From a virus (Duplodnaviria; Caudoviricetes), in IMG/VR virus record IMGVR_UViG_3300044822_000131, positions 1 to 54,728 of that record: a stretch of DNA of 54,728 bases; one strand, given 5' to 3'. Shown here piece after piece: positions 1 through 54,728 of this stretch (position 1 is its first letter; every line of letters begins with the position of its first letter). The position numbers and the translations under genes were made by a program. The notes beneath the pieces are model-generated. The model was not told where the DNA came from. It searched no databases and saw nothing but the letters and a program-made list of their open reading frames with translations.

Positions 1-917
1 GCGAGGTCCTGGAGCTTCAGCGGTTGCTCCTCGTCGACACGATGGGCGAGCAGTTGCGTATCGTCCGCCTTCAAGTTGACGCCGTACTTCTCGAGGATGA
101 CCGCTCGGTCGAACGCGCTCGCATTGTGACCGACGAGCAGCCCGCCTCTATCGAGGTGCAGCTTCATGGCAGAAACGCTCTCGGCGATCCGTTCCTTCTC
201 GACGATGTAGATCGTGTGGCCGTTGTCGATCCCGAGGAAGCGCACCTCGAGTTCCGGGTCGCGCAGCGGACGGGCGTTCGTTTCGATGTCGAAGCCCCAC
301 AAACCCGAATGGCCTTCAAGGTCGCATCCGTCCCATATCTTCCAGCGCACGTCGACGCGTGTGAACCCGCCGCTTAAGAGCCGCCGGCCGGTCTGGAAGT
401 CTTGAATGATCTCGCCTTCGTGCGACGGCTCCCGGAGCGCGTAGGCCGGGTGCAGCGTCGGCATGATCTTCACGGGCGCCGTCACGGTGATAGACTTGTG
501 CGGCTCCTGTACCTGCCCCCGGTACTTCGTGATCCCCGAGAGTCCCGTAAGACTCTTGAGCGCTTCGTTCCCGAGCGCGAAGATAATGTCCGGTTTGACC
601 GCTTCGATCTCGCGGACGAGATGCGGCTTGCAGGCGTTGATCTCTTTCGCCGTCGGCTTTCTGTTTGCGGGCGGTCGGCAACGAACGGCGTTCGTGACGC
701 GCACGTCCTCGCGGCGCAGGTTCGCCGCCAAGAGCAGGTGATTCAGCAGCTTGCCCGATTCACCGACGAACGGGACGCCCGAGCGGTCCTCAGAGTCGCC
801 CGGCGCTTCGCCGACGAGCATGATCGTCGCGTCCTCCGGGCCGTTCCCGTTGAGCAGCTGCCGCGTCGCCGTTTTGTAGAGCGGGCAGGCGGTACAGGTC
901 GCCTCGGATTCGTTCAC
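1..917 (-). CDS. polA: UDG(family 4)-fused family A DNA polymerase, second copy; UDG and 3'-5' exonuclease part only, truncated by the window edge
   Basis: Not in the ORF track. Hand translation from GTG 917 (GTGA overlap with helicase stop): MNESEATCTACPLYK...MLVGEAPGDSED...VTNAVRCRP...TLHPAYAL...WGFDIETN...VGHNASAFD...DEEQPLKLQDL; colinear with the 52202-54583 protein. Confidence 0.88.
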   Translation of the reverse strand, partial: MNESEATCTACPLYKTATRQLLNGNGPEDATIMLVGEAPGDSEDRSGVPFVGESGKLLNHLLLAANLRREDVRVTNAVRCRPPANRKPTAKEINACKPHLVREIEAVKPDIIFALGNEALKSLTGLSGITKYRGQVQEPHKSITVTAPVKIMPTLHPAYALREPSHEGEIIQDFQTGRRLLSGGFTRVDVRWKIWDGCDLEGHSGLWGFDIETNARPLRDPELEVRFLGIDNGHTIYIVEKERIAESVSAMKLHLDRGGLLVGHNASAFDRAVILEKYGVNLKADDTQLLAHRVDEEQPLKLQDL

Positions 918-2464
918 AGCGTCAAGAACTCCAAGAAGTTCGTACGGCCGCGCAGCATGACCGAGGCGTCGAGCTTTTCCTTGACGACGCGCTTGGCAAA
1001 ACCGTCCGCGCTGTTCCGCATTTGAAAGTAGGTGATATGCGAGGTTAAGCCGGGGTGCCATATCCGGCGGCGCATTTGTTCGTGCATCGCCGGGTCCATC
1101 GACCAGGAATGAAAGAAGAGGTGCCGCGCGCGGGCAAGCGAGATCCCGACGCCGCCGACTTGCTCTTGGATAACGAGCACGCGCAGCGGTGTTTCGGCCG
1201 TCGAGTTTACGTCGAAGACCGAGAGCGCTGCGAGCGTTTCCGCCTCGGGCGTGTGGCCGTTGACGAGCGCGACGCTTTCAACGCCGTGCGCGTGCCCGAT
1301 CGCTTTGCGAAGCGCTTCGCCGGCAGCCGTGAACGCGTACGAGATGACGACCCGTTGCCCCATCGCGAGCGGTTCGGTTAGGTCCGAGAGCACCGCATCG
1401 GTCTTCGTGTGATGGATCCAGCGCAGGTCGCCCGTCCCCTCGTCGACCAAGAACCCGGCGCACAGTTGCAGGTGACGCAGCAGCTTCGTGAGCCGGTGCG
1501 TGCCGTCGACCGTGAGGTAGTCTTCTGCCAGCACAGACTCTTTGGCGAGTTCGTCGTAGAGCTTGCGCGCCCGTGGCGGGAAGTCGAGGTGCCGGGTCAC
1601 TTCGTTCCACGCTGACGGGCCGAAGTAGTCCTCGGCTTTCACGCGCTGCATGATCGAGAGCACGCGTTCGTAGAACTCCCCCTCGCGTTCGAGCCGCATC
1701 CGTTCGGGTTTGTTTTGGATGAACGGGTTGAGGTGAAAGTAGCGATCCAAGAACGCCTTTTTCGAGGTCCCAAACACGCTCGGATCGAGCACGACGTACT
1801 GCGCGTAAAAACTCGGAGCGCGCTGCGGGTCGGGCGTGCCCGAGAGCAGCCGCCGATACCCGGCACCTCGGGCGAGGCGCCGCAGCGCGCGCGAGCGGTG
1901 CGCGCCGGCCGACGAGATGAGGTGCGCTTCGTCCACGATGATCGCTTCCGGCCCCCACTTGCTTAGGAGGTCCGACAGCTTCTTCGAGGACGATCGCGCG
2001 CGGGCGAGCCGAGCTTCCGCGAGCGTGCCGAACGCCTCTCCCCGGAACAGGTAGGAGTCCTGCACGCGTTCGATCCGCTCGAAGTACACGTCGAGCGTGT
2101 CGAAGTTGAGCAGCAGCACGACGGGGGTGTTGCCCGCCGCGCCCGCAATCAGATCCTCGAGGACCTCCGCGCGCCAGGCCGTGTCGCTCTCGACGAGCGG
2201 AACGTAGTACCCAATCCCGCCCCCCGCGCTCGGGCGCCGGTAGCCTGCACGTTCAAGCTCGTCCGTCCACGTTAGGCGCAGCGGATTCTTCGGTCCGACG
2301 ATGAGCGTGCGCGCCACGCCGCGTTCGTGCTGTCGGCGCACGATTGCCGTAACTTCGGCGCGCGTCTTGCCGAGGCGCGGGTCGTACGCGAGATAAAACG
2401 CAGGCGCGAAGGCCCAATCGGAATACGCGTACTCTGCCTGGTAAGGACGTAACGGTTGAATCAT
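914..2464 (-). CDS. SNF2/DEAH-like superfamily 2 helicase (copy 2)
   Basis: PRLGKT (motif I), IIVDEAH (II), LSGTP (III), GGVGISL (V). Confidence 0.88.
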   Translation of the reverse strand: MIQPLRPYQAEYAYSDWAFAPAFYLAYDPRLGKTRAEVTAIVRRQHERGVARTLIVGPKNPLRLTWTDELERAGYRRPSAGGGIGYYVPLVESDTAWRAEVLEDLIAGAAGNTPVVLLLNFDTLDVYFERIERVQDSYLFRGEAFGTLAEARLARARSSSKKLSDLLSKWGPEAIIVDEAHLISSAGAHRSRALRRLARGAGYRRLLSGTPDPQRAPSFYAQYVVLDPSVFGTSKKAFLDRYFHLNPFIQNKPERMRLEREGEFYERVLSIMQRVKAEDYFGPSAWNEVTRHLDFPPRARKLYDELAKESVLAEDYLTVDGTHRLTKLLRHLQLCAGFLVDEGTGDLRWIHHTKTDAVLSDLTEPLAMGQRVVISYAFTAAGEALRKAIGHAHGVESVALVNGHTPEAETLAALSVFDVNSTAETPLRVLVIQEQVGGVGISLARARHLFFHSWSMDPAMHEQMRRRIWHPGLTSHITYFQMRNSADGFAKRVVKEKLDASVMLRGRTNFLEFLTL

Positions 2465-2468
2465 AGCA

Positions 2469-2626
2469 CCTGGAAGGTCACTTGCAACTCGCGCAGAGTT
2501 CGCCGCGCTTGCCGCTCGATCGGCGTCCCGGTGGCCGGGTTCCCCAAACAGCGTGCTTTCCTTTGGCCTCCACCTCTTCTTCGAGCGCGTGGATCCGGCG
2601 CGCTACGTCAGGGTAGAACGCCTCGA
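2469..2626. repeat. 158-bp direct repeat, copy 1 (copy 2 at 54571-54728)
   Basis: Identical except 2477/54579 and 2499/54601; the last 127 bp are exact. Confidence 0.95.
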
Positions 2627-3230
2627 TGTCCTTGATTTCTTCGGCGTGGGCAAATGCGCCGCACAGACACTCGCCGCTCATATGCAGTAGCGCCGCGACC
2701 TCACTCTCGGGTACGTCGTGCTCCTCGCGGTAGGCGCGCAGGTCGTCCTTCGTCCTGTCTAGGAATGGCGCTACCCAAACCTGCGCGCCTTTGCGCCTCA
2801 CTTCGACAACGTGTCCCATGCGCCGATCGGATTCGGATAGACGTACTCCGGTTATCAGCATGATGCGATCCCGCCGGCTTGTCTTGTGCTCACGCACGAG
2901 AGCCTCGATGCAGCGCTCCTTTAGCCGTGTATACATAAAGAGATGCCCGCCAGGCCCAGGGAACCCGTGTTCTAAGACGATCGCAGCGTAGGAAACCGGC
3001 GGATGGTATTCAAGCAACGGGATGCTGTAGCGAGAGCAAAAATCGTAGACGAACTCGCGTGTCTGCGGAATCCCGATCGTAGTGTTAATGTGGACCGCCG
3101 CGTCGGCGAGGCCGGCATGCCATACTGCGTGGAGTAGCGCCGCCGAATCGTTGCCGCCCGAAAACAGGACGAACCGATGCGAGCAGTCATGCTCGGTGGA
3201 TGCGCGGGCAATTATCTCTTGGAAGCTCAT
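2478..3230 (-). CDS. PAPS reductase-family (PP-loop) protein
   Basis: LFSGGNDS PP-loop, ITGVRLSES, SGECLCGAF. Confidence 0.88.
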   Translation of the reverse strand: MSFQEIIARASTEHDCSHRFVLFSGGNDSAALLHAVWHAGLADAAVHINTTIGIPQTREFVYDFCSRYSIPLLEYHPPVSYAAIVLEHGFPGPGGHLFMYTRLKERCIEALVREHKTSRRDRIMLITGVRLSESDRRMGHVVEVRRKGAQVWVAPFLDRTKDDLRAYREEHDVPESEVAALLHMSGECLCGAFAHAEEIKDIEAFYPDVARRIHALEEEVEAKGKHAVWGTRPPGRRSSGKRGELCASCK

Positions 3231-4654
3231 GCCGCGGCCCGCTTGCGGCGGATGCGGCCGAAGACGAGGCTCTCGCGGTCGGCGTTGCGGAGGGACTCGT
3301 GCAGGTCGCGCTTGTCGGCCAGCAGGTTCGCCACGAACGCATCGACCGTTCCGTCGACGTCGTAGTACGTGATCGTGCGCGGGACCGGGGCGCTGCCGTC
3401 GTGCTTGTAGACGCGATCCCGGCTCTGCTCGTCGTCGGTGAACGAGAACGTCCGCGAGAGGTAGGCGAGGTGCCGGCCCTCGCGCAGCGACACGCCCTCG
3501 GACCCCGACTGCATTTGGACGACGATTGCCGCCGCACCGGGGAAGGCGTTGAACGCTTCGATGTCCTCGGCCCCGGTGCCACGGCCCAAGCGGAACACCG
3601 GCATGTCAGGGAACGCGCGGCCGATCGTGGTTGCGGCCACCTCGCCTTCGTGGACGAAGCGGTGGAACACGACGATCTTCTCGTCCGACGCGACGATCTC
3701 GTCCATGTCGGCGATCAGCGCGTCGATCTTGGCCTGGTGCATCGGCAGCGCGCCCTTGGTCGTGCCGTCGGCGTCGAGGTCGGGCAGGAAGCCCGAGGTG
3801 AGCTGCTGGAGGCGCATCAGCCGCACGGCGGCGTTGGTGGCGGTGATCGTGGCCCAATCGTCGGATTGCAGGACCCACTCCTTGGCGAGCCGGTGGTAGA
3901 GGTTCCACGCTCGCGCGGGCATCTCGACCGTGCGGTGAATCTCTTGGTAGCGGTCCTTGCCGAACCAGTCCTCGCGCCGGTAGATGGCTGCCACCTTCAG
4001 GATCATCGCTTGGAGCTCGTCGACGTTGATGTGCGCCAGCACGCGCGAGGTATACATCGCGTCGCGGACGAGGAAGCGCTGGGCGAACCGCTCGTAGCTG
4101 GAGGGCCAGTTGTCGGGGTCGAGCGGCGCGAGCTGCGACCACAGCGAGCCGTAGTGGCGGGGGGCCGGCGTGCCGGTGAGGCTGCGGACGTAGGGTGTGG
4201 TGCGCGCGAGCTTGCGGTAGGCCCGGCCCCGATCGGTCGAGATCCCGCAGTAGTTGTGGCTCTCGTCGGCTACGAAAACGTCGAGCTTGGGGACGCCTGC
4301 GAAGGCGGCGTTCGCGAGCTTGTCGCGGTTGATGATGGCGACGCCCTCCCAGGCGGGGTCCGACACGAAGCGCTCGGCGGCGAGCCCACTGAGGTCGTAG
4401 AGCTCGTGCGTCGGGATGCCTGCGTCACCGAGCACCGACTTCCAGGTCGGGCCGACTTTGAGCGGCGCGGTCACGAGCGCCCGCCGCCACGCGCCGGCCC
4501 GCCGGCGCAGGGTGAGCGCTATCGCGTTCGTCTTGCCCATCCGGGGCGCGGCGTGAATCGCGCGCTTCGGGAGGTCGCCGTTGGTTTGGTCCTCGAGCCG
4601 CTCCCATTCGTAGGGGCCCTCGGGCTCGGGCAGTTTCCAGGGCCCGAGCTTCAT
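3227..4654 (-). CDS. SNF2/DExH-like superfamily 2 helicase (copy 1)
   Basis: PRMGKT, FVADESH, LTGTP, GSEGVSL, QSRDR. Confidence 0.88.
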   Translation of the reverse strand: MKLGPWKLPEPEGPYEWERLEDQTNGDLPKRAIHAAPRMGKTNAIALTLRRRAGAWRRALVTAPLKVGPTWKSVLGDAGIPTHELYDLSGLAAERFVSDPAWEGVAIINRDKLANAAFAGVPKLDVFVADESHNYCGISTDRGRAYRKLARTTPYVRSLTGTPAPRHYGSLWSQLAPLDPDNWPSSYERFAQRFLVRDAMYTSRVLAHINVDELQAMILKVAAIYRREDWFGKDRYQEIHRTVEMPARAWNLYHRLAKEWVLQSDDWATITATNAAVRLMRLQQLTSGFLPDLDADGTTKGALPMHQAKIDALIADMDEIVASDEKIVVFHRFVHEGEVAATTIGRAFPDMPVFRLGRGTGAEDIEAFNAFPGAAAIVVQMQSGSEGVSLREGRHLAYLSRTFSFTDDEQSRDRVYKHDGSAPVPRTITYYDVDGTVDAFVANLLADKRDLHESLRNADRESLVFGRIRRKRAAA

Positions 4655-4893
4655 GGACTCAGCAGCCCGGCTTCCACGCAGGCCCGAAGCAGGGCGGCGT
4701 GCTCGGCCCGCGCCCGCCGTTCAAGGCGAGAGACCTTCGTCTGCGTGATCCCGAGCTCTTTGGCTATGTCGTACTGGCTCCAACCCTTGGTGGCGCGCAG
4801 CGCTCGGATGCGCTTGAGGAGCAAGGCGTCGCGCTCGGCGCGTTCTGCTTTTGTCATGGTACTCATCATATCCGACTCAGTTAAACGAGTCAA
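4651..4893 (-). CDS. XRE-family helix-turn-helix regulator (start may be a downstream Met)
   Basis: IRALRATKGWSQYDIAKELGITQTKVSRLE. Confidence 0.85.
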   Translation of the reverse strand: MTRLTESDMMSTMTKAERAERDALLLKRIRALRATKGWSQYDIAKELGITQTKVSRLERRARAEHAALLRACVEAGLLSP

Positions 4894-4917
4894 TGAGGAG
4901 TAAGTGTAAACTGCCTA

Positions 4918-4977
4918 TGTATCATGTATCATGTATCACTAATATATAGATTTTTGTGATACATGATACATGATACA
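4918..4977. promoter_or_regulatory. Perfect 22-bp inverted repeat of (TGTATCA)x3 around a 16-bp AT-rich spacer; candidate replication origin or operator
   Basis: tgtatcatgtatcatgtatcac-taatatatagattttt-gtgatacatgatacatgataca, just downstream of the primase-helicase gene. Confidence 0.75.
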
Positions 4978-4991
4978 CGAACAGATGTTCG

Positions 4992-6716
4992 CTATTTTTC
5001 TGCCCGTAGATACCGCATGACCGTGTTGCGCGTTACCCCGAGCGCCGCCTCGATCTCCTTGATCGAAGCGCCGTCCGCTCGCATCTCGCGCGCCTGCTCG
5101 GCCCGGCTTGCGGCGGCTTCGCCCCGGTCGACCGGCTCCTCAATGTCGCCCGCCTGCGCCGAGGAGAGCGACACCCGTTCGGGGTCGCTGGGCAGCACGA
5201 GCTCCAAGGGCACGAGCGAGCCGTCTTCGAGCCGCTCCATTTGGACCGAGCCGTCGCGGGGGTCGACGAGCACCCGCGGCTCGCCCGTGAAGTCCAGGGC
5301 GTAGCCGGGCTCCGGCCAGTTTGTCTTCTCCACGGTGAGCCGCAACGGCCCGCCCGGCTTGCGGGTGGCGCGCAAGAACACCCGCGCCACGTTTCGCATC
5401 TCGGTCGAGCCGAGGTACGCCCCGCCCTTGTTCTCGTGGAAGGTGCCCACGATCGTGCAGCCGGTGCGGGTCGCGATGTCGGCCAGCGCCCCAAGCGCCG
5501 TTCGTGCCCGCTCGGCCGCGTTTTGGCCCTTCTCGTGCTCGAAGTGGGTGTAGATGCTGTCCAAGTACAGGAAACCGCAGCCGGACTCCACCAGGGCAGC
5601 GGAAAGGGCCGTTGCGTCGCGGGGAAGTTGGAGGCTCGAGCCGACCGGGATGTGATACAGCCGCGAGAGGTCCGCGCCGAGCACGGCTGCGGTCAGCGCG
5701 AAGATTTGGAACGGCTCCTCGACCCCGACATGGCCGAACAGGCCGCCCGCCCGCGTCACTCGCGCGGCCATCCACGAGAGGAGGCGCGACTTGCCGATGC
5801 CCCCCTCACCGTAGAGCAGCACCATCTCCCCCTTGGGGAAGAACCGCTCTAGCCACCACTCCTTCGCCTCGACGACGAGGTCCGAGTCTGCTGCCACCTT
5901 CCACCCCTCCGGCCGCAGGCGCACCGCCGGCGCGTCCGGCGACCCCAGCTCCCACTTGGCTGCCGACTTCGCGATGCGGGCCGCGTCGCGGGCCGAGTAC
6001 AGCCCGCGCGCCGGGTCCTGCTCCAGCACCCCCGAGCCGATGATGCCGGTGAGCATGGCGGCGATCGCGCCCTCGGAGAAGCGCCGGGGCCCCCGTAGGA
6101 ACCCCGCGATCTTGGCAAGCTCGTTGTCGTTCTCGCCGATCGGGATCTTGTCGCGCTCCTCGAGCGCGAGCGCCATCTCAATGTCGCCGTGGTCGGTCGC
6201 CCGCTCCAGCAGCCAGTCCGGTGCGGGTGCCGGCGCGCGGTCGTCGATCACATGGTAGCGGAACCCGCCCTCGCGCAGCGAGCCGGGCCCCACGATGTAC
6301 CCCTTGGCCTTGATGTCCCCGATGACGGTCTGCCGGCCGTTCTCGTCGGCCACGACGTATTTGCAGTTGCGCCCCTCCCAGCCCGGCGGCACCGTGAACA
6401 GCGCATGCACGCCGCGCAGCGTCTTCTGCCGCCAGGTCGGCCCGAGCCGCCGCAGCTCCGCCTCGGCTAGTGGCCCCCCAACGTCGAAGTCGGCCAGGAG
6501 GAATTGTCCGTCGAGCGCGATCCCGATGTTGGTATCTTCGCCCCAATCCAAGAACATGTCCTGAGAGACCGCGGAGCGGTGGCCGTGCGCGGCCTTGGGC
6601 TCCTTGCCGGTCGAGATGCGCCCGTTGGGCATAACGTCGCCGGGCTGATAGAGATGCAGCAGCCGCGCGCCGGGCGGGAGTCCCGCACGCACGCTGCGAT
6701 TAGCCTCGGCGCTCAT
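4992..6716 (-). CDS. Bifunctional primase-polymerase / AAA_25-type helicase with C-terminal HTH
   Basis: NIGI..LADFD, TLRGVHALF, GYIVGPGS (Prim-Pol); LYGEGGIGKS Walker A, LYLDSI Walker B; SIKEIEAALGVTRNTVMRYL HTH; start at the ATGA overlap 6716. Confidence 0.88.
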   Translation of the reverse strand: MSAEANRSVRAGLPPGARLLHLYQPGDVMPNGRISTGKEPKAAHGHRSAVSQDMFLDWGEDTNIGIALDGQFLLADFDVGGPLAEAELRRLGPTWRQKTLRGVHALFTVPPGWEGRNCKYVVADENGRQTVIGDIKAKGYIVGPGSLREGGFRYHVIDDRAPAPAPDWLLERATDHGDIEMALALEERDKIPIGENDNELAKIAGFLRGPRRFSEGAIAAMLTGIIGSGVLEQDPARGLYSARDAARIAKSAAKWELGSPDAPAVRLRPEGWKVAADSDLVVEAKEWWLERFFPKGEMVLLYGEGGIGKSRLLSWMAARVTRAGGLFGHVGVEEPFQIFALTAAVLGADLSRLYHIPVGSSLQLPRDATALSAALVESGCGFLYLDSIYTHFEHEKGQNAAERARTALGALADIATRTGCTIVGTFHENKGGAYLGSTEMRNVARVFLRATRKPGGPLRLTVEKTNWPEPGYALDFTGEPRVLVDPRDGSVQMERLEDGSLVPLELVLPSDPERVSLSSAQAGDIEEPVDRGEAAASRAEQAREMRADGASIKEIEAALGVTRNTVMRYLRAEK

Positions 6717-6934
6717 ACGTCGCGCCTTAAGGACGCGATAAACGCCGTTGTCTCCGCTAAGGCTGCCATGTACTCTGCCGAAGGTTGTTTGTCGCGCTCC
6801 TGGCCTGGGCGGTATGCGGCCCAAATCCGATCCCGGAGCGACTTCGGAAGCATGAACCAATGCCTCTTGCACATATGCATCCTCGGCGGGACCGGCACCT
6901 CGCACCCTGGGGCATGGCAGTGGTGTTCGCTCAT
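6713..6934 (-). CDS. Small Cys/His-rich phage protein
   Basis: HCHAPGC...MCKRHWFMLP; ATGA-coupled at both ends. Confidence 0.7.
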   Translation of the reverse strand: MSEHHCHAPGCEVPVPPRMHMCKRHWFMLPKSLRDRIWAAYRPGQERDKQPSAEYMAALAETTAFIASLRRDV

Positions 6935-18642: not shown

Positions 18643-20313
18643 GTGAACGACGACTTGCGGGGGTTGCTCGACGACCTCGACCGCGCTACAATAATGCCCG
18701 CGACTCCTTTCGCTACGCCGCAGCCGCCCCCCGTGTACTCCGAGGGGTGGCTGTATCGTTTCTGGAGGGATGATTGGGGCAGCCCGGTCTCTCCCCAACC
18801 GCACTGCGAGATGGCCGACTACATTCAATCGGCGCTCGGCGACTGCTCGTTCTCGGGCAGCGAGAAGAAGCTCGTCATGCTCGGCGTCCCGCGCAACACG
18901 TTGAAGACGACCAACGTGTCGGAAGCGACGCCGGTCGCCGTTCTCACCAAGAACCCGAACGCGAAGATACTGCTCGACGGCTTCCGCCATTCGATCAGTA
19001 AACTCCGGCTGCGCGCGATTCGCCGCAAGCTCGAACGCGACGTCGTCTTAGATCAGAAATACGGCACGATGGCTTGGAAGCCGATGTTCCGCGAGGATAT
19101 TTGGAACGCGGCCGAGATCCGCATCACGGCCGCGACCGACCTCGGCGTGCGCGAGTCGTCGATCGCGACGGCCGGCGTCGACTCCTCGGCGACGTCGCAG
19201 CACTTCGACCTCATCATCCCCGACGACTTGGTCAACGAGATCAACTCACGCACGCAGGACTCGCGCGAGCGCGTCTACGAGCATTTGATGGATCACATGG
19301 CGATCCTCAATCCCGGCGGCGTGATCCTCATGGTGTTCACGTTTTGGCATGTCAACGATGCCTACGCGCGCATCATCAAACTCGACGAAGCGCGCGAGCG
19401 CCGCGGCGAGCGGCCACTGTGGCGCAAGATGATCCGCTCGTGCTATGACGGCCCGAACGGCCTCTACTGCCCGACCCGCCTTTCCTACGAGCACCTCGAG
19501 GAACAGCGCGAGCTCATCGGCCCCTACCGCTTCGCCGCGAACTATTTGATGAAGCCGATCGCGGATGAGGACAAGACCTTCAACATGGACGCGCTCAAGA
19601 TGCGCCCGTTCAAGTTCTTCTCCACCGCCGAGCAGAGCTTCGGCGGCGTCATCCGCACCGAGAACGACGCGCAGTACATCGTCGAGACCACGATCGCGTG
19701 GGATCCGATGGGCCGCAAGGTCCGCAGCACCTCCGACTCCCACGGCATCACGGTCGTGGCGACCGACGTCGACGACAGGTGGTGGATACCCGAAGCGCTC
19801 TCAATCAAGACGACGCCCGAGTCCATCATCAACCGGATGTGTCTGCTCATTCAAATCTACCGGCCGTGGACGGTGTCGATTGAGGACGTCGTGGGCCAGG
19901 GGCTGTGGCTCGACATGTTAGCCGACGAGTGCGTGCGGCGCGGTATCGGCGTCGGGTTCACCGAGTTTGCGACGGGCGGCATCCCGAAAGAGCAGCGCAT
20001 CATTCTGCTGCAACCGCGCTGGGCGCGCGGCGGCATGATCCTTCGATCGAAACCGGATGCGCCCGACGAGCCGATGCACAAGGAGTTTTACAACCAACTC
20101 GACACGTTTTCGCCCGGCGGCATCGACCACGAAGACGTCCTCGACTCCCTGGTGCAGCACCTCCGGCTCACCCGCCGGCCCGACATTCGCGCGCTCCCGC
20201 GCGGCGAGAGCAACCCGGTCGACCCCGAGTACGCCGCCTTCCGTAAGCGACAACAGCAGGATGATCCGGGGATGCCGCTCACCGGCCGGTTCGGGACGAC
20301 CTGGACACCGTAG
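18643..20313 (+). CDS. terL: Terminase large subunit
   Basis: VPRNTLKTT Walker A variant, HFDLIIPDDL Walker B, nuclease acidic motifs AWDP, SDS, HEDVLDSL. Confidence 0.9.
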   Translation: MNDDLRGLLDDLDRATIMPATPFATPQPPPVYSEGWLYRFWRDDWGSPVSPQPHCEMADYIQSALGDCSFSGSEKKLVMLGVPRNTLKTTNVSEATPVAVLTKNPNAKILLDGFRHSISKLRLRAIRRKLERDVVLDQKYGTMAWKPMFREDIWNAAEIRITAATDLGVRESSIATAGVDSSATSQHFDLIIPDDLVNEINSRTQDSRERVYEHLMDHMAILNPGGVILMVFTFWHVNDAYARIIKLDEARERRGERPLWRKMIRSCYDGPNGLYCPTRLSYEHLEEQRELIGPYRFAANYLMKPIADEDKTFNMDALKMRPFKFFSTAEQSFGGVIRTENDAQYIVETTIAWDPMGRKVRSTSDSHGITVVATDVDDRWWIPEALSIKTTPESIINRMCLLIQIYRPWTVSIEDVVGQGLWLDMLADECVRRGIGVGFTEFATGGIPKEQRIILLQPRWARGGMILRSKPDAPDEPMHKEFYNQLDTFSPGGIDHEDVLDSLVQHLRLTRRPDIRALPRGESNPVDPEYAAFRKRQQQDDPGMPLTGRFGTTWTP

Positions 20314-20851: not shown

Positions 20852-22318
20852 GTGAAGCGTCGCGCTCTACTCGCCGTCAGCATCGCCGTGTTGATGGTCT
20901 TGCCGTCGCTTGTCCGCGCTCAACTCGGGCCGAACGTCACGAGCGGCCTGTTCTCCTCAACGAGCGCGAGCGGGTCGTTCCCCCGGCTCAACGTCAAGGG
21001 GGACCAAACCTGCACCTTCTTCGTGAACAGCGGCGGTGGTGCGACCTTCACCGTCACCGGGGCCAGCGACGCCGGCGTGAGCGGCACCCCGACGATGGTC
21101 ACGAACGCGCTGTTTCCCTCGAGCGGCGTCATCGTGGCCCCCGCCGCGAACACCTACTACTCAGGCTCGGTCTCGTCCCTCAACACCTTCTTCCAAGTAA
21201 CGTGGACCGGCAACACCGGCACCGTCCAGGGGACCGAGAGCTGCACCGCCGCTAACTCGGGCGGCACGTTCACCGGCACCGTGACGGCCAACGTCCCAAC
21301 TCCGCTCTCGGTGATCGGGCCCGGCGGCTCTCCAGTCCCGGTAAATATCTCAGGGGGCACCGGGTTTCCGACTCCCGTGCCGTATGCGACGAGCGCGGGC
21401 ACGGTCCTCAAAGTTGACGGCTCCGCCGTTACCCAGCCCGTTAGCGGCTCGGTCACGGTTTCGGGCACCGTCACGGCGACGGGCGTCGCGACCCCGGTTC
21501 CTTATGCGACGAGCGCCGGCACCGTCCTAAAAGTAGACGGCTCTGCCGTAACTCAGCCTGTTTCCGGCACCATCACCTGTTCAAATTGCACAGGCGCTAC
21601 CCCGATTCCCTATGCTACAGCGGCCGGCACGATCCTAGAAACGCAGATCGTGAACTCGCCTGCGCCAACGTACACGCCGCCCGTGGTCGCGACGACGCCG
21701 ACGCCGGGGCTGCCCGTGAACGCGGCCCTGCTCGGGTTCAATGCCTCCGGGCAGACCCAGGGCGTGTCCGTGGACTCGAACGGTTACGTGAACGTGGACT
21801 GCAAAACCAACTGCACGGTGTTTCCGTATGGGACCTCGACCGGGCAGACGGCGCTCTCGAACTCGTTCTTGGGGGCGGCGCTCGTCGGCTCCGGTGGCAC
21901 GGTCGCGCCGTTACAAGGGGACGCGGCCTGGAACCTGTACGTCGCCGAGCGCGCGTCAACAGGCGGCGGGTTCACGCACTACAGCGCCACCTCGATCACG
22001 GCCGGGACGGCAGCCACGATCTCGTCCACGGCCAACACCACGCTCGCGGCGCTCACCGTGTCCTGGTCCGTGCCGTCCACGACGACGAACTGTTACCTGA
22101 CGCTCTACAACTCGGCCTCGCCGACGGTCGGAACGGGCTTCGTTGCGATCTACCCGATCAATACCGCCGCGCCGGGCGAACTCGCGCTTCCGATCCCGCC
22201 GACGATAGGCGGCAAGTTCAGCACAGCTATTTCCTACGCGCTGACGACGACGCCCACGGGCTCGACGGCGTGCAATTCCGCCAGCAATCAGGTTTGGCTC
22301 GACGCCTGGTACATCTAA
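20852..22318 (+). CDS. Signal-peptide-bearing Thr/Ser/Gly-rich beta protein with internal repeats
   Basis: MKRRALLAVSIAVLMVLPSLVRA signal; TPVPYATSAGTVLKVDGSAVTQPVSG twice plus a partial third. Confidence 0.85.
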   Translation: MKRRALLAVSIAVLMVLPSLVRAQLGPNVTSGLFSSTSASGSFPRLNVKGDQTCTFFVNSGGGATFTVTGASDAGVSGTPTMVTNALFPSSGVIVAPAANTYYSGSVSSLNTFFQVTWTGNTGTVQGTESCTAANSGGTFTGTVTANVPTPLSVIGPGGSPVPVNISGGTGFPTPVPYATSAGTVLKVDGSAVTQPVSGSVTVSGTVTATGVATPVPYATSAGTVLKVDGSAVTQPVSGTITCSNCTGATPIPYATAAGTILETQIVNSPAPTYTPPVVATTPTPGLPVNAALLGFNASGQTQGVSVDSNGYVNVDCKTNCTVFPYGTSTGQTALSNSFLGAALVGSGGTVAPLQGDAAWNLYVAERASTGGGFTHYSATSITAGTAATISSTANTTLAALTVSWSVPSTTTNCYLTLYNSASPTVGTGFVAIYPINTAAPGELALPIPPTIGGKFSTAISYALTTTPTGSTACNSASNQVWLDAWYI

Positions 22319-50228: not shown

Positions 50229-51016
50229 TTTGCTATTGCTTTCTTCGTAGTATTGTTTGTGGTGATAAGTTGGTCACTGGCTGTCGCCCCGAGCGACGTC
50301 TTACCGGCACCGGGGTGCCCGTAGATCGTGAGCACGGAGCTCTGTTTGCCGAGCACCTTCCAGAGCTTCGGCAGGGTCGGGTCCGGCAGCGCCTTCGGAA
50401 TCTTTTCCGAGAGCTCCCGCGAAACGTGGAACTTGGCAGTGGCCGATTCGGTGCGGCGCAGGTAGAGCACGCGGGTCTCGCGCGCGAAGATCGTGTTGCC
50501 TTTCTCATCGACCACGGGGTCGGTGAGCGACACCAAGCGGAAGACGTCCGAGGACGATGCGATCAGCGCCTCGACGAAGGCGGGGTTCCCTTGCGGTCCC
50601 GCCATCTTGAGGCCGGCCATCGCGTCGCGGACCTCGTCCTCGTGGGTGAGCACGATGACATGCGCGCCGCGCGCGCGGAAGTTGTTGATGCCGCGCATGA
50701 CGAGCGACGTCGCCATGTTGTAGACCGCCAAGTATTCTTTGTCGCCGAAGAACTTGTTGATCTTGCTGGGGTCCCACAGCGCGTCCTCGTTGCGGTTGCC
50801 GAGCATGCGGTCGATGCGGGTGGTGGTGAGCAACGCCGAGGCCGTGTCGAGCATGACGTTGTCGCCGGGCTCGAGCGTTCGCATGAGGTCCTGGCGGTGC
50901 CGATCGAAGTCGGCGAAGGTGGCGCACGGCAGGTTGATGATCCTGCCGTCGTCGATGTAGTCCTGGATAGAGTCGGTGCCGTTCATGTCGGCGTCGAGGC
51001 GATAGAACTTACTCAC
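50225..51016 (-). CDS. Sak4/AAA_24-like ATPase with the Walker A at the C-terminus
   Basis: RLDADMNG, VMLDTAS (Walker B), VIVLTHE, TAK, then IYGHPGAGKTS near the C-terminus. Confidence 0.85.
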   Translation of the reverse strand: MSKFYRLDADMNGTDSIQDYIDDGRIINLPCATFADFDRHRQDLMRTLEPGDNVMLDTASALLTTTRIDRMLGNRNEDALWDPSKINKFFGDKEYLAVYNMATSLVMRGINNFRARGAHVIVLTHEDEVRDAMAGLKMAGPQGNPAFVEALIASSSDVFRLVSLTDPVVDEKGNTIFARETRVLYLRRTESATAKFHVSRELSEKIPKALPDPTLPKLWKVLGKQSSVLTIYGHPGAGKTSLGATASDQLITTNNTTKKAIAK

Positions 51017-52020
51017 AGTTGAACCATCTTTCTGTCTTTCCAGAACGCCTCGACGGCGGCACGGCCGGGCACGCCGTAGACGGCTTGAACCGCGTCGATT
51101 ATTTTGAACCGGCGCTCCTCGATGAGCCAGTCGACGCGCGGATCGTCGAGCATCGTGCGGGGGTCGACCCGATCGGCCGGGTTGTAGGGGTCGGTGAGCC
51201 GGTCGAGCTCATCGTCCGAGAGCGTGCCGAACCAGTCGGCTTTGCAGATCGGTTTGAAGAAGCACCCGCCGCAGACGCCGTTGCCGTACTCGCGGTAGTT
51301 GGGCACGCGGTAGGTGCGCCGATGGCGGAGCGTTTCCTGAATGTCGAGCGCCACGTTGTAGAGCTCGCGGCGCGTGGTCTCACGCTCGAACTCCGACATC
51401 TCGAGCTCTTGCGGTTGGGGGTAGAGGTCCTCCTCATCCCAGGGCACCCAGGTGGCGACGGACTCGCCGCGGACCTTCTTGGTGAGGAACCGCCCGAGCT
51501 CTTGGCGAGCGTAGACCCAGCGGAACTTGGCCGGCATCTTGAAGTTGTCTTCGGCGATCGTGAGGTAGACGCGCGCTTGGAAGTCCATGTCGACGTCGGG
51601 CGTCGGCGCTTTCAGGAACGTCTTGTAGTCCTGGACGACGGCCTTTTTGTAGTCGGGGTCGTAGTCGTCTTGGTCGTCGTAGTAGACCAGGTCAAAGCTC
51701 CCGCGAACGTGGAAGCCCGGCGCGATCTCGGTGAAGTAGCCGCGCTCGATGGAGAGGATGCGGTTGGGTTCGGGGAGCGGGTGCGCGGCGAGGTAGGCCG
51801 CGGCCACCTCGTAGGCGGGCTCGCCGTCTGGTTGCGGAAGCTCGCCGTACTCGGCCGCGTGCGCCATGTAGGCGTGAAACTGAGAGCCGAAGTTGACGAT
51901 GCCGGGGACGTCGTCGCGTTTGGGTTGGTAGTGAAGCATCGTGTCGAACTCGAACATCTTTTTGCAGCGCATGAAGTTCTGCACCGCGGTCATCGACAGG
52001 ACGAGAGGCATCTCGCTCAT
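51013..52020 (-). CDS. PD-(D/E)XK RecB/Cas4-like exonuclease
   Basis: LSMTAVQNFMRC, FGSQFH, RGSFDLV, VQDYKT, QARVY, CGGCFFKPIC. Confidence 0.88.
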   Translation of the reverse strand: MSEMPLVLSMTAVQNFMRCKKMFEFDTMLHYQPKRDDVPGIVNFGSQFHAYMAHAAEYGELPQPDGEPAYEVAAAYLAAHPLPEPNRILSIERGYFTEIAPGFHVRGSFDLVYYDDQDDYDPDYKKAVVQDYKTFLKAPTPDVDMDFQARVYLTIAEDNFKMPAKFRWVYARQELGRFLTKKVRGESVATWVPWDEEDLYPQPQELEMSEFERETTRRELYNVALDIQETLRHRRTYRVPNYREYGNGVCGGCFFKPICKADWFGTLSDDELDRLTDPYNPADRVDPRTMLDDPRVDWLIEERRFKIIDAVQAVYGVPGRAAVEAFWKDRKMVQL

Positions 52021-52295
52021 TCGCCCCATCCCTCGGCGTAGATCAGCTCGCCGTCTTTGTTGAAGTGCAGGATGACGGTTGAGGCGTAGGAGCCAGGCTG
52101 TCCGTAGACGAGCTCGGCAGCGCATCCTTTAATGGAGGTCGCGAAGCGGCGGTCCCAAGGCTGCGACGACCGCTCCCCGGTCGCTTGACGATCCTCAAAT
52201 GTTATGAACTCGAGCTGACGGGAGCTATCTTTCTGCTCGCAGCGTTGTAAGGCGTGTTTGAATTGTTCGTATTCGGAGTTGATTGAGAATTGCAC
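52017..52295 (-). CDS. Hypothetical protein
   Basis: AAGGA RBS before GTG 52295; overlaps the polA tail. Confidence 0.55.
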   Translation of the reverse strand: MQFSINSEYEQFKHALQRCEQKDSSRQLEFITFEDRQATGERSSQPWDRRFATSIKGCAAELVYGQPGSYASTVILHFNKDGELIYAEGWGE

Positions 52296-54583
52296 AATAT
52301 TCCTTTCGCTTCTTGGTATGTTATCTCGACGTCGAGCGGCACGGTTGGGATGACGTTGAAGTGCTCCCGCAGTACTCGGAGCGGCTCGTCGATCATGCAC
52401 CGCCGAATCGTAGGCTCGGCCGCACGGGCCTCGTCCATCGAATCGAACTCGAACTTGATGTCATCGTGGACGAAGTCCACCATCGGCAGGTTTTCCCGGT
52501 TGCACGCACCGAGCGCGATCTCCGCGATGTCTGCACAAAAACCTTGCACCTGCATGTTACACGCTTCGCGCAGCGCTTCCCTCTTTTGATTCGCGTTTAG
52601 CAGGGCAAAATCGCCGAAGTTGCGTCGCCGTCCGGTGACGCTCTCGACGTAGCCGTGCTCGATGAGTTGACGACGCGTGCGAACGAACCAACGCTTCCAA
52701 TCCGGCATCGCACGGTGCCACGATCGGTGAACGTGTTCTCCCTCGGCGTCGGTGAGAAAGATTCCCATCTCGCGCGCGGCGTAGGACACCACCGTTGCGC
52801 CGACGCCGAGGAACTCTTGCGAGAAGTTGCCCGACTTCGCAACCTGCCGCTGCTGCTTCGTGACGTCGGCTTCGGTGATCCCCTCGTAGAGATGCGGTGC
52901 GAACCAGGTGTGCGGGTCCCAATTGGGATCGCGCGCGAAGTTTGCGATGACGGTGCGCTCGTTTGCCACGAAGGCTCCCATGCGAAACTCGATGGCCCGG
53001 TAGTCGGCGTGGACGAGCACCTTGCCGGGGGCCGGCGCTTTGATTTCCTTGAGCTCGCGGTCGAGGTTCTGCGTGCTCGGGTCGGTCGCCGAGGTGCGGC
53101 CGGTGAGCGTGCGCCACACGGTGTAGTGCGGGTGCGCCCGGCCGTCGCCCTCGTTCGTGATACGTTCGTAGGGCAGGATGTAGGTCGACATGCGCTTCTG
53201 TACCTCGCGGTACGCGAGCATCGCGCGCGCGAAGGGATGGTTGATGTAGACGAGCGCCTCCTTGTCGACGCAGTCCTTGCCCGTCTTGGTGAGCCCGAGG
53301 TCGAACCCGCAGTGCCGCAGCACCGCCGCAACGTGGTCGTTGCTGTTCGGATTGAACGCGATCGTCTTCACCTTCGTCTTGAGCTGCTTGTCGAAGACGC
53401 GCGAGTCGAACCCGGCCCGGTCGAGCTGCCAATAGACCTCGTTGAGCCGAAAGTCGAGCAGCTCCTCAGTCTTGGCTTTGTGCTTGGCGACGGCCACGGG
53501 GTCGATGTAGATGCCGCGCGCAGAGATAGCGTCGAGGGCGAGCCGCGCCGGCCGCATCATGTGGTCGACGATCTTGATGCGGTCGCCTAGCAGTTCGCGC
53601 GCCTTGTGGTAGAGCTTGATTGTCATCTCGGCATCGCGCGCGTTGTAGGCCGCGAGCTCGGGCGAGCCGAGCTTCGCGCCGTCGCGCTCCTCCTTCCAGC
53701 CCCGCACGCCGAGGTATTTGGTACAGAGCGGCTCGAGCCCAAGCGGCTGCGTTTCGTCCAAGAGGTAGCACAGCGCGGCGGTATCGTAGTCGGAACGCAG
53801 GCCCGTCATACGGTCGTCAAAGTCCCAGCCGAAGTGCGACACGATCGTGAGCGGCGGCATCGCTTGCAGCATCTCCTTCGCGAACCGCGACGACACGAAG
53901 GTGACGGTCCCGTTGGAGATGGCGGCTTGCGTCATACGGTCGGTGATAGCGCCGGTCTCGTCGTAGGTCTCGATGTCGTAGGCGACAACATCGCCCTCAA
54001 ACGGCTTTCCAGTCCAGGGCAGCCAGTTCGCCTTGACGGGCGGGATGCTGCGGTCGCGGATCTTGCGGAGGTCGCCGGTCACGACACCACGCGCGCTCGG
54101 GCCCTTAGAATACAGCACCCAAGCCGGGTGGTAGGTGGCCCACACGCCACAGTCGTGGTTGAAGGCGGCTTTGAGCTTCCACTCCTTGCCGCGTGCGTTC
54201 CCGATCGACACCGGGCCGATCAGCGTCTTGACCGCCACCTCGCCGAGCGCGATGATGACCTGCGGGCGCACGCGCCGAATCTCGGTCGCGAGGTGCGTCG
54301 CGCAGGCCGCGGCCTCGGCCGGCAACGGCGCGCGGTCCTTGGGCGTCGCGCACTTGACGGCGTTGGTGATGTAGACCTCATCCGGGTCGAAGCCTGCATC
54401 GCGGAGCATGACGTCGAGGAGCTTCCCCGACTTGCCGATGAACGGCAGCCCCTCGAGGTCCTCGGTGCGGCCGGGGTTCTGCCCGACGAGCATGACGGTG
54501 GCGCTCTGCGGCCCCTTGCCGCCGATGCCGACCGAGAGCGCGCTTCGGTGGAGCGGGCAGGCGGTGCAGTCCTGGAAGCTCAC
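52202..54583 (-). CDS. polA: UDG(family 4)-fused family A DNA polymerase (SPO1-like architecture)
   Basis: CTACPL, VGQNPGRTED, TNAVKC, YHPA; exonuclease YDIET, DFD, YNARD; polymerase TGRTS, ADYRAIE, AKSGNF, VHDD; start at the GTGA overlap 54583. Confidence 0.93.
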   Translation of the reverse strand: MSFQDCTACPLHRSALSVGIGGKGPQSATVMLVGQNPGRTEDLEGLPFIGKSGKLLDVMLRDAGFDPDEVYITNAVKCATPKDRAPLPAEAAACATHLATEIRRVRPQVIIALGEVAVKTLIGPVSIGNARGKEWKLKAAFNHDCGVWATYHPAWVLYSKGPSARGVVTGDLRKIRDRSIPPVKANWLPWTGKPFEGDVVAYDIETYDETGAITDRMTQAAISNGTVTFVSSRFAKEMLQAMPPLTIVSHFGWDFDDRMTGLRSDYDTAALCYLLDETQPLGLEPLCTKYLGVRGWKEERDGAKLGSPELAAYNARDAEMTIKLYHKARELLGDRIKIVDHMMRPARLALDAISARGIYIDPVAVAKHKAKTEELLDFRLNEVYWQLDRAGFDSRVFDKQLKTKVKTIAFNPNSNDHVAAVLRHCGFDLGLTKTGKDCVDKEALVYINHPFARAMLAYREVQKRMSTYILPYERITNEGDGRAHPHYTVWRTLTGRTSATDPSTQNLDRELKEIKAPAPGKVLVHADYRAIEFRMGAFVANERTVIANFARDPNWDPHTWFAPHLYEGITEADVTKQQRQVAKSGNFSQEFLGVGATVVSYAAREMGIFLTDAEGEHVHRSWHRAMPDWKRWFVRTRRQLIEHGYVESVTGRRRNFGDFALLNANQKREALREACNMQVQGFCADIAEIALGACNRENLPMVDFVHDDIKFEFDSMDEARAAEPTIRRCMIDEPLRVLREHFNVIPTVPLDVEITYQEAKGILCNSQSTPNTNNSNTPYNAASRKIAPVSSSS

Positions 54584-54728
54584 TTGCAACTCGCGCAGAG
54601 CTCGCCGCGCTTGCCGCTCGATCGGCGTCCCGGTGGCCGGGTTCCCCAAACAGCGTGCTTTCCTTTGGCCTCCACCTCTTCTTCGAGCGCGTGGATCCGG
54701 CGCGCTACGTCAGGGTAGAACGCCTCGA
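54571..54728. repeat. 158-bp direct repeat, copy 2, containing the 3' end of the PAPS-reductase-like gene
   Basis: Matches 2469-2626 with two mismatches. Confidence 0.95.

Follow-up and report, generated by a model that had tools for sequence, protein, structure and literature searches.

UDG-PolA phage polymerases, in which a family-4 UDG domain is N-terminal on a family A polymerase, occur in N4-like cluster 17 and in unclassified phages such as SPO1 and have UDG catalytic residues that are retained in some members and lost in others (PMC10201439). Two polymerases with a predicted N-terminal UDG domain, alike in this respect to those just described, are encoded in the sequence analysed here, IMGVR_UViG_3300044822_000131, a record of 54,728 bp that is filed as linear with a CheckV completeness of 100 and was analysed over its entire length (the window); unlike in sequence, both copies are only 24–27% identical to the polymerases of cultured phages. 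In de Bruijn assemblies, a circular contig finishes on a repeat whose length equals k (at most 127 in SPAdes), and phage genomes are mosaics in which morons are inserted at gene boundaries. The structure of the present contig is an assembly effect, yet it probably also documents that two rather dissimilar phages, referred to below as A and the rarer B, have recently exchanged a gene. The features concerned are as follows.

1–2468: lasso tail, sequence of the rarer population B (Logan depth 13.6–14.4 against 42.5–44.9 elsewhere)
3–917, minus strand: B-type UDG-PolA (PolA'), first 305 codons, truncated by the contig start; UDG domain E 8e-36
914–2464, minus strand: B-type SNF2 helicase (SNF2'), 516 aa; PF00176 31 bits (cut-off 24.9), phrog_62 E 3.5e-63
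2461–2481, minus strand: mini-ORF of six codons (V T F Q V L) and a stop, read directly from the sequence
2469–2626: left repeat copy, comprising the 3' end of the PAPS gene and 9 nt past its stop; exact from 2500
2478–3230, minus strand: PAPS-reductase-like gene, 250 aa; PF01507 45.7 bits (cut-off 22.5), phrog_424 E 3.6e-29
2627–54728: genome A, one full turn of a 52,102-bp circle (from repeat spacing, CheckV 100 and the terminase inside)
3227–4654, minus strand: core SNF2 helicase of A, 475 aa; phrog_62 E 1.7e-63
4992–6905, minus strand: primase-polymerase/AAA helicase of A; Prim-Pol and AAA_25 domains
18643–20313: large terminase, inside the loop
50225–51016, minus strand: AAA_24 ATPase, downstream of polA in A
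51013–52125, minus strand: PD-(D/E)XK nuclease, downstream of polA in A
52202–54583, minus strand: UDG-PolA of A, 793 aa; UDG E 1.2e-32, DNA_pol_A E 1.1e-47; GTG start overlaps the PAPS stop
54571–54728: right repeat copy, closing the circle onto 2469–2626; last bases of the contig

A repeat search detected a single long direct repeat in the window, 2469–2626 with 54571–54728 (158 nt, 99%, spacing 52,102). On alignment the copies agree at 156 of 158 nt, differing at 2477 (G in the left copy, C in the right) and 2499 (T and C, respectively), and the exact portion, 2500–2626 with 54602–54728, is 127 nt long and stops on the last base of the contig. Because this exact match reaches the contig end and its spacing corresponds to a complete genome, the contig is an assembly lasso consisting of a complete 52,102-bp phage circle (A) and a 2,468-nt tail (B). 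It resembles an ordinary circular de Bruijn contig in both these properties but differs in that the other copy of the match lies 2,499 nt inside, so that a variant-specific tail precedes the circle. The terminase and the replication genes are all within the loop, and genome A is a complete phage genome, circular or circularly permuted; the tail has no counterpart in the loop apart from distant coding similarity. The original prediction, which had proposed a 52,102-bp circle plus a branch from the 127-bp exact match, is borne out by the repeat alignment and by the meeting of three contigs at 2500–2529 in another assembly.

That second assembly comprised the Logan contigs (k presumably 31) of run X1, the one run in which the stretch is present and probably the source sample of the record; it supplies contigs with one mean depth value each and represents a second assembler, not independent data. 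The three contigs that meet at 2500–2529 are the branch, the polymerase side of A and the path onward into the core. The branch contig covers 703–2529 at a depth of 13.6 and crosses the 2468/2469 junction with 61 nt on the far side; the A-side contig (25,881 nt, depth 42.5) enters 2469–2529 with two other letters, including T>C at 2499; and the core contig (6,768 nt, depth 44.9) begins at 2500 and is unbroken. Branch contigs overall have depths of 13.6–14.4, and one of them reaches 1,599 nt past base 1, so that the branch measures at least 4,067 nt without visible rejoining; nor was rejoining of branch and circle seen on the A-side contig, which is continuous over its 25,881 nt. Comparison of the arms and core on these contig means gives a threefold gap, and the predicted coexistence of two genotypes is thereby upheld, B being about threefold rarer than A. 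Within the branch (492–702), 17 of the 18 listed variant sites occupy the third position of a codon in the PolA' frame, which marks B as a genuine population subject to selection. No exact match to the window's initial 60 nt was present in metagenome_contigs or viral_contigs, collections that may omit records close to the window, and blastn of the branch against cultured phages gave no match.

The branch encodes a second SNF2 helicase and a second, divergent UDG-PolA, both as originally predicted. SNF2' is 31% identical over 344 aa to the core helicase (ORF 3227–4654), which has no Pfam match at E≤0.001, and 42–61% identical to 17 other proteins; an IMG/VR search with the branch helicase alone returned no match, and a homologue alignment was required. 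PolA' is 35% identical to the right-end polymerase over 303 aa, with LVGEAPG in place of LVGQNPG, and 51–60% identical to 14 full-length UDG-exo-PolA proteins of 778–835 aa, these close homologues carrying both the UDG and the family A polymerase domains. Its start is most likely the GTG at 917, which overlaps the helicase stop, rather than the ATG at 1061, and the resulting predicted N-terminus, VNESEATC, resembles MNEADAAC of the nearest relative described below. The polymerase of A has PF03167 and PF00476 in one ORF; PF01612 (3'-5' exonuclease), which is listed for most B-clade relatives, is not reported at E≤0.001 for A's polymerase or its three nearest relatives (P0019, P0021 and P0035), and a DIET motif is present in both window polymerases.

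The phylogeny of both polymerases and both helicases places the copies in distinct clades. In trees built by quick searches with SH-aLRT support only, PolA', which fills only 37% of the kept columns, belongs to a clade of 15 rows (support 100) distinct from the one of 4 rows (100) that contains A's polymerase; SNF2' lies within a clade of 18 rows (100) that does not include A's helicase, and sister pairs agree between the two trees. Seven contigs (15851, 49617, 46493, 6181, 15757, 19323 and 30388 in size) recur in the match lists of PolA' and SNF2', being equated by identical size, with adjacency of the two genes seen directly only in L099 and L091. An IMG/VR scan with the polymerase alignment was used for synteny counts; among the matches listed, the relatives are all distant (≤46%), the helicase lies ≤301 nt upstream of polA in 6 of the 20 loci that have both genes, and none of the 25 loci with a helicase match has two helicase genes. 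In L109, which belongs to the clade of A and whose helicase is 39% identical to A's core copy, helicase and polA are adjacent, the junction reading TAAGTG. Gene order and phylogeny together indicate that in both clades the SNF2 helicase normally stands immediately before UDG-PolA and that the two are inherited together.

The nearest relative of the branch is IMGVR_UViG_3300049216_000331 (L099, as a genome G001; 46,492 bp, 85% complete), whose helicase is 60–61% and polymerase 58% identical and whose gene order is primase, helicase, polymerase, PD-(D/E)XK nuclease and AAA_24 ATPase. It differs from the branch in that an ORF of 93 aa separates its helicase from its polymerase and in that no PAPS match was found in it, the search having been run without a positive control. 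When 47 ORFs picked from the loop of A were compared with this genome, only four, all replication genes, had matches, at 23–31%. Relatives of A's polymerase were found in L109 (45%), L110 (55%) and L111 (42%), which resemble A in their order of polymerase, nuclease and ATPase; L109 and L111 also have the upstream helicase, and in L109 and L110, as in A, there is either an overlap or no gap between the stop of the gene upstream and the start of the polymerase. The order of nuclease and then ATPase after polA is seen in L094, L099 and L101 as well as in these three loci. The suggestion that helicase and polymerase form a swappable cassette was not borne out, the pair being adjacent in relatives of both clades and the two trees matching. 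The upstream flank, the 3' end of the PAPS gene, is indeed common to both pairs (156/158 nt), but because of the conserved adjacency and the matching trees the branch is better read as the other clade's normal pair than as an alternative insert at a common site, and inheritance of the module looks like vertical co-inheritance.

In this setting the PAPS gene is the unusual element. In A it lies between helicase and polA and is translationally coupled on both sides by overlapping stop and start codons, unlike L109, in which the slot before polA is empty, L111, in which it holds two small ORFs, and L110, in which it holds unknown ORFs and a pentapeptide-repeat/DUF5758 protein. The genes upstream of polA differ among L099, L110 and L111, and among these phages the site immediately before polA seems to be a variable slot. 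The gene has a GC3 of 0.70 against 0.81–0.93 in all its neighbours, and phrog_424 is categorized as moron or auxiliary metabolic gene. Because of its atypical GC3, its moron-category family and its variable slot, the PAPS gene, a putative reductase, is probably a mobile accessory element of the replication module. Its homologues number 1,516, the best non-self matches being 68–72% identical. A PAPS search of G001 and G002, run without a positive control, yielded nothing, and neither did that of the retrieved parts of L109–L111. None of the seven IMG/VR loci with a PAPS relative shares the window's SNF2, PrimPol, PD-(D/E)XK or AAA_24 genes, and L009 is the sole one of the seven with a nearby PolA match, a distant one (27%).

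The two junctions at the end of this gene can be read letter by letter on the minus strand. At the right, GTG AGC TTC CAG GAC TGC leads into the ORF with the UDG and DNA_pol_A domains; at the left, the sequence is GTG ACC TTC CAG GTG CTA TGA, with the next ORF starting at an ATG that overlaps this TGA. Alignment confirmed the original observation that the 3' end of the PAPS gene occurs twice with these two continuations. At the left the result is the six-codon mini-ORF, whose GTG overlaps the PAPS stop, whose TGA overlaps the helicase ATG and whose first four codons read as a relic of the start of an A-type polA. The 13-nt polA relic noted previously stands in that 12 of its 13 nt are identical to the polA start at 54571–54583, but its first four nt (GTGA) overlap the PAPS stop, so that the homology beyond the gene is 9 nt, of which eight match. 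We estimate the chance of eight matches in nine at a fixed offset at about 1e-4 to 1e-3. The encoded VTFQ resembles A's VSFQD and not VNESEA or MNEADA of the B clade, and on these comparisons the relic is to be taken as an A-type polA start.

We judge it likelier that the branch continues into a separate phage with only the PAPS gene in common with A, the case that the original prediction had named as counting against it, than that B is a recombinant of A, and our favoured explanation, that B belongs to the other clade and captured the PAPS gene from an A-type context, is given a probability of about 0.5. The path of the assembler began on a 2,468-nt fragment of B, the population about threefold rarer, entered A at the first shared 127-mer (2500–2626), circled A once and halted on the same 127-mer. 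The fragment holds the standard SNF2 helicase and UDG-PolA pair of a different phage clade, and in B a nearly identical PAPS copy sits just upstream of the helicase with 9 nt of an A-type polA start. Since the copy keeps these 9 nt past its stop, we infer that it came from an A-type context, the transfer running from A-type to B, probably through an illegitimate recombination event only a few codons past the polA start; what remains of these codons now forms the mini-ORF, which bridges the stop of PAPS and the start of the helicase through two overlapping stop/start pairs. A B with one helicase fits the norm, in that none of the 25 listed loci has two. The explanation assumes that the exit of B from the shared path was removed by graph cleaning, the core contig being unbroken for 6,768 nt from 2500. 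Loose ends at 2942 and 3694 were considered as this exit and rejected, their 30-nt tails being, by eye, unlike the adjoining window sequence; we interpret them as short stretches belonging to homologues in other organisms. A joint of 3114 to 5894 was disregarded, its shorter side being merely 20 nt.

Two further explanations were weighed. According to one, also put forward in the original prediction, both polymerases sit in a single genome along with both helicases, the assembler having collapsed a repeat of 127 nt or more; the topology permits this, the repeat being bounded by the contig end, but equal arms and a doubled repeat would then be expected, and the depths of 13.6–14.4 in the branch, 42.5 on the A side and 44.9 in the core contradict it. 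With the circle by itself rated 100% complete and no relative having two such pairs, this is the least probable of the explanations considered. According to the other, computation alone produced the left junction, as a false join to which no molecule corresponds. Both assemblies are de Bruijn assemblies, probably of the same reads, which speaks for this, yet the Logan contig that crosses 2468/2469 and continues for 61 nt does so at the depth of the rest of the branch (13.6), the branch-side copy has its own two variant letters, and gene starts and stops stay overlapped in frame, which is unexpected for a random join; a false join is accordingly rated as highly improbable.

More serious is the possibility that B is a recombinant of A with an identical core, in which the right arm from five codons into polA, perhaps with the nuclease and ATPase too, has been replaced by the other clade's helicase–polymerase pair, giving a phage with two SNF2 helicases; this corresponds to the swapped replication modules of the original prediction. 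Lasso-shaped contigs often come from strain variants, and the branch here merges into a core contig that then runs for 6,768 nt without a break. Were B to share the whole core, A alone would account for a depth of about 31 and B for 14 of the 45 in the core, and the A-side mean of 42.5 would imply about 4.6 kb present in A only, near the 4.4 kb of polA, nuclease and ATPase (54583–50225). The branch contig, moreover, stops about 60–150 nt past the expected end of PolA', as judged from homologues of 788–819 aa. The same depths are reproduced, however, whether B leaves the shared path about 1.2 kb to the right of 2500 (42.5 + 13.6 × 1.2/6.8 = about 44.9) or shares the whole core and meets A again some 4.6 kb along the A arm, and the contig depths fit a separate phage and a recombinant alike. 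What speaks against a recombinant is that the A-side contig is continuous, with no rejoining visible within 25.9 kb, that an odd clustering would be required, with both mismatches lying within 31 nt of the junction and none in the next 6.8 kb, that two helicases of this family occur in none of the 25 listed comparison loci, and that the nearest branch-clade genome, G001, shares with A only four replication genes among the ORFs compared. A recombinant of A is therefore regarded as possible but less likely, and a separate phage is inferred.

As a separate phage with a captured PAPS gene, B would resemble known moron insertion and mosaicism in that an accessory gene of atypical composition lies at different boundaries in two phages, next to a short scar of its former neighbour; it would be unlike them in that the scar is retained as a tiny coupling ORF and in that the event is recent enough for 127 identical bases to remain. 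Whether B is a separate phage or a recombinant of A, the exchange is ordinary mosaicism, and current ideas of phage mosaicism are unchallenged. For the record, the consequence is that the first 2,468 nt lie outside the 52.1-kb genome and are best trimmed off; left in place, they make it look as if the phage had two polymerases as well as two helicases, and they inflate its size. For the biology of these phages, the favoured explanation would provide a clear, dated example of the recent passage of an accessory gene between two co-occurring peat phages that share almost nothing else, with the breakpoint mapped to within a few bases and the scar turned into a putative translational coupling device. 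If B should instead be a recombinant of A, a replisome swap would have been caught in the act, with a co-adapted incoming pair only 31–35% identical to A's own, with the stump of the old polA put to new use as a coupling mini-ORF and with parent and recombinant present at 3:1 in one peat sample, and the two phages could then serve to test which of the replication proteins have to move jointly.

The 158 nt at 2469–2626 recur at 54571–54728 with 99 % identity and a spacing of 52,102, forming the sole long direct repeat found by a repeat search of the window. Pairwise alignment showed that the copies differ at 2477 (G versus C) and 2499 (T versus C), so that the exact part is 2500–2626, 127 nt that reach the window's last base. 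The original prediction that the 3' end of the PAPS-reductase-like gene (PAPS; 2478–3230, minus strand) occurs twice, with an exact match of this length, was thus confirmed by both methods. Such a match, lying between a mismatch and a contig end and equal in length to the largest SPAdes k (127), is the expected mark of a de Bruijn path re-entering a used k-mer; it is not mere family conservation, since the best non-self match among 1,516 PAPS homologues is 68 % identical (72 % over 86 % of the query). The 54,728 bp record, which is the entire window, is entered as a linear sequence, and CheckV rates its completeness at 100.

Every gene at the two window ends is encoded by the minus strand. The right end belongs to the 52,102-bp phage circle A (2627–54728), and there a GTG overlapping the PAPS stop starts a 793-aa ORF with UDG and DNA_pol_A domains. 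At the left end, the PAPS stop overlaps GTG ACC TTC CAG GTG CTA TGA, the TGA of which is overlapped by the ATG of a 516-aa SNF2-related ORF (SNF2'), whose own stop overlaps a GTG at 917 that starts a second UDG-bearing ORF (PolA'), exiting at the contig start. This branch (1–2468), behind which lies phage population B, does carry a second helicase and a divergent polymerase, as had been claimed: PolA' is 35 % identical to the A polymerase over 303 aa (LVGEAPG versus LVGQNPG motifs) and SNF2' is 31 % identical to the A helicase over 344 aa. The proposed 13-nt relic of the polA start is present, with 12 of 13 positions matching, but because four bases are part of the overlap with the PAPS stop, homology beyond PAPS amounts to 8 of 9 nt. 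This tract is small, yet a match by chance is unlikely (1e-4 to 1e-3 by our own estimate).

Among 222 proteins found at E<=0.001 in 5,947 candidates, the PolA' fragment has 14 close homologues (51–60 % identity), all of them full-length UDG-exonuclease-PolA proteins of 778–835 aa; SNF2' has 17 at 42–61 % identity, out of 27 proteins at E<=0.001. Seven longest-contig sizes (15851, 49617, 46493, 6181, 15757, 19323 and 30388) occur in both lists, and the two genes therefore ride on the same contigs. In quick maximum-likelihood trees (LG+G4, with SH-aLRT alone as support), PolA' fell within a 15-row clade and the A polymerase within a separate 4-row clade with homologues P0019, P0021 and P0035, each with a support of 100 (45 rows), while SNF2' fell within an 18-row clade with a support of 100 and the A helicase outside it, beside P0140 (29 rows). 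Sister pairs also matched between the polymerase and helicase trees (P0003 + P0005 with P0125 + P0124; P0014 + P0015 with P0139 + P0138). The 3'-5' exonuclease domain PF01612 is listed by Pfam for most B-clade polymerase relatives; it is reported neither for the A polymerase (52202–54583), although a DIET motif is present there, nor for P0019, P0021 and P0035. UDG-PolA fusions are known from N4-like phages, SPO1 and others, and the catalytic UDG residues are described as retained in some and lost in others (PMC10201439). Both polymerases studied here differ from those of cultured phages, with identities of 24–27 % (best 27.1 %) in a comparison where 30 of 2,805 matching records cover >=80 % of the query. 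Phage A is far from described phages: among 13 large plus-strand ORFs tested from its structural region (20852–48973), 10 had no PHROG match at E<=1e-5, the other three matching a large terminase, a head-tail adaptor-like protein and an internal virion protein. A 488-aa ORF (20852–22318), for which no PHROG match was found, contains two 88-nt copies (21369–21576), 81 % identical and 120 nt apart, that are probably a repeated domain of a structural protein.

Gene order was compared in IMG/VR loci. L099, a 46,492-bp contig whose helicase and polymerase are 60 % and 58 % identical to the branch pair, has the order primase-helicase, SNF2, 93-aa ORF, UDG-PolA, PD-(D/E)XK nuclease and AAA_24, and in L091, L093, L094, L100 and L101 the helicase lies 39–73 nt upstream of the polymerase. 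Of the relatives of the A polymerase, L109 (45 % identity) has abutting helicase and polymerase genes (TAAGTG) and in L111 (42 %) two small ORFs separate the pair; in L109–L111 the nuclease and ATPase come next, as in A. A helicase match was present in 25 of 92 loci and both genes in 20, six with a gap of <=301 nt; in the other 14, which are more distant UDG-PolA phages found via polymerase alignment, the helicase is 0.66–5.5 kb from polA, on either side. Homologue lists, trees and gene order therefore show that helicase then UDG-PolA is ancestral and co-inherited in both clades. What the branch carries is no more than this gene order as it exists in the other clade, and the suggestion of a swappable helicase-polymerase cassette finds no support.

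The misplaced element is PAPS. In A the gene occupies exactly the gap between helicase and polymerase, overlapping both neighbours, a position where it was absent from every relative examined; the retrieved parts of L109–L111 gave no PAPS match, and neither did G001 (the whole record of L099) and G002 in a search run without a positive control. PAPS matches phrog_424, in the category of morons and auxiliary metabolic genes, and has a GC of 0.604 and a GC3 of 0.70, the GC3 of its flanks being 0.93 and 0.85 in A and 0.81–0.83 in B, a composition that points to its recent acquisition by both phages. Seven IMG/VR loci have a PAPS relative (41–57 %); the window's SNF2, PrimPol, PD-(D/E)XK and AAA_24 were absent from all seven, and L009 alone has a PolA match, distant (27 %) and ~4.6 kb off. 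The slot upstream of polA is empty in L109, holds small ORFs in L111 (5370–5995) and L099 (11520–11801), and in L110 (2–2351) holds ORFs without assigned function and a pentapeptide-repeat/DUF5758 protein, and so resembles an accessory-gene hot spot. In B, PAPS is trailed by four codons, V T F Q, which match the start of the A polymerase (V S F Q D) and differ from B-clade starts (branch, V N E S E A; L099, M N E A D A). The PAPS copy of B therefore comes from an A-type PAPS-polA junction, the break in which would lie five codons inside polA.

In a single public run, the peat metagenome X1, which is a possible source of this DNA, 99 % of the sampled words of 1–2626 were present. Its Logan contigs (presumably k=31) were placed on 1–6000; they represent a second assembler, probably on the same reads, and are not independent data.

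Logan contigs of X1 at the junction
703–2529: contig of 1,827 nt, depth 13.6, spanning the branch junction
2469–2529: contig of 25,881 nt, depth 42.5, with two differing letters, including T>C at 2499
from 2500: contig of 6,768 nt, depth 44.9, continuing into the core
1–491: contig of 2,090 nt, depth 14.4, extending 1,599 nt past base 1

These contigs converge as a lasso predicts and, with the 127-nt match at the contig end, uphold the proposed circle of 52,102 bp plus branch; bases 1–2468 should accordingly be trimmed from the phage A genome. Both junctions exist as sequence, and the branch is about threefold rarer than the circle; given the placement on 1–6000, we infer that the 25.9-kb contig continues into the A polymerase. 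In bin 3601–3800 contig depth rises by 13 units and contigs end loosely at 3694 and 3787, another abundant organism in X1 sharing a ~94-nt patch with the core helicase gene.

The depths favour two coexisting genotypes, as one alternative of the original prediction held. The other, a single genome with both polymerases and a collapsed repeat, requires equal arm depths and a doubled repeat; with 14 found against 43–45 it is rejected as highly improbable. A false join at the left junction is very unlikely. The branch is a real, evolving population: of 18 variant sites listed in 492–702, 17 are third codon positions of PolA' (frame counted from 917), and they stem from two pairs of alternative contigs within 462–732 (depths 3.5 and 7.8; 4.8 and 7.2), so that the rarer phage comprises at least two sub-strains. 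These are 5–7 % divergent in that patch and otherwise identical across the branch.

Our preferred reading, to which we give a probability of about 0.5, is that B is a phage in its own right, a member of the B clade, and acquired PAPS with 9 nt in addition before its helicase; the possibility that B is an A genome with its right arm replaced by a B-clade helicase-polymerase pair is less likely. Contig depths are compatible with both: capture gives 42.5 + 13.6 × (~1.2 kb of 6.8 kb) = ~44.9, and arm replacement gives equal means if the core is 31 + 14 and ~4.6 kb of the 25.9-kb contig is A-only. Each needs an event hidden by graph cleaning, namely the exit of B in the 6.8-kb contig for capture and its rejoining in the 25.9-kb contig for replacement. 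We favour capture because it results in a normal one-helicase genome (a second helicase gene was found in none of the 25 helicase-bearing loci), because PAPS shows the hallmarks of a moron, and because the nearest B-clade genome shows no further relationship to A: of 47 loop ORFs selected on GC3, G001 matches just four (primase, helicase, polymerase and AAA_24; 23–31 %, E<=1e-6), so that in all other respects phages of the B clade differ from A. The one-helicase norm also speaks against arm replacement, as do the two mismatches within the 31 nt adjoining the junction, which ill suit a core identical over kilobases. The rest of the probability falls to mixed or unforeseen cases and, in very small part, to the single genome and the false join.

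In the textbook view of phage evolution, modules and morons are exchanged at gene boundaries. In biological terms, the outcome here is an accessory gene that was transferred recently and whose scar has been mapped precisely, and the transfer of PAPS is a neat but ordinary example.
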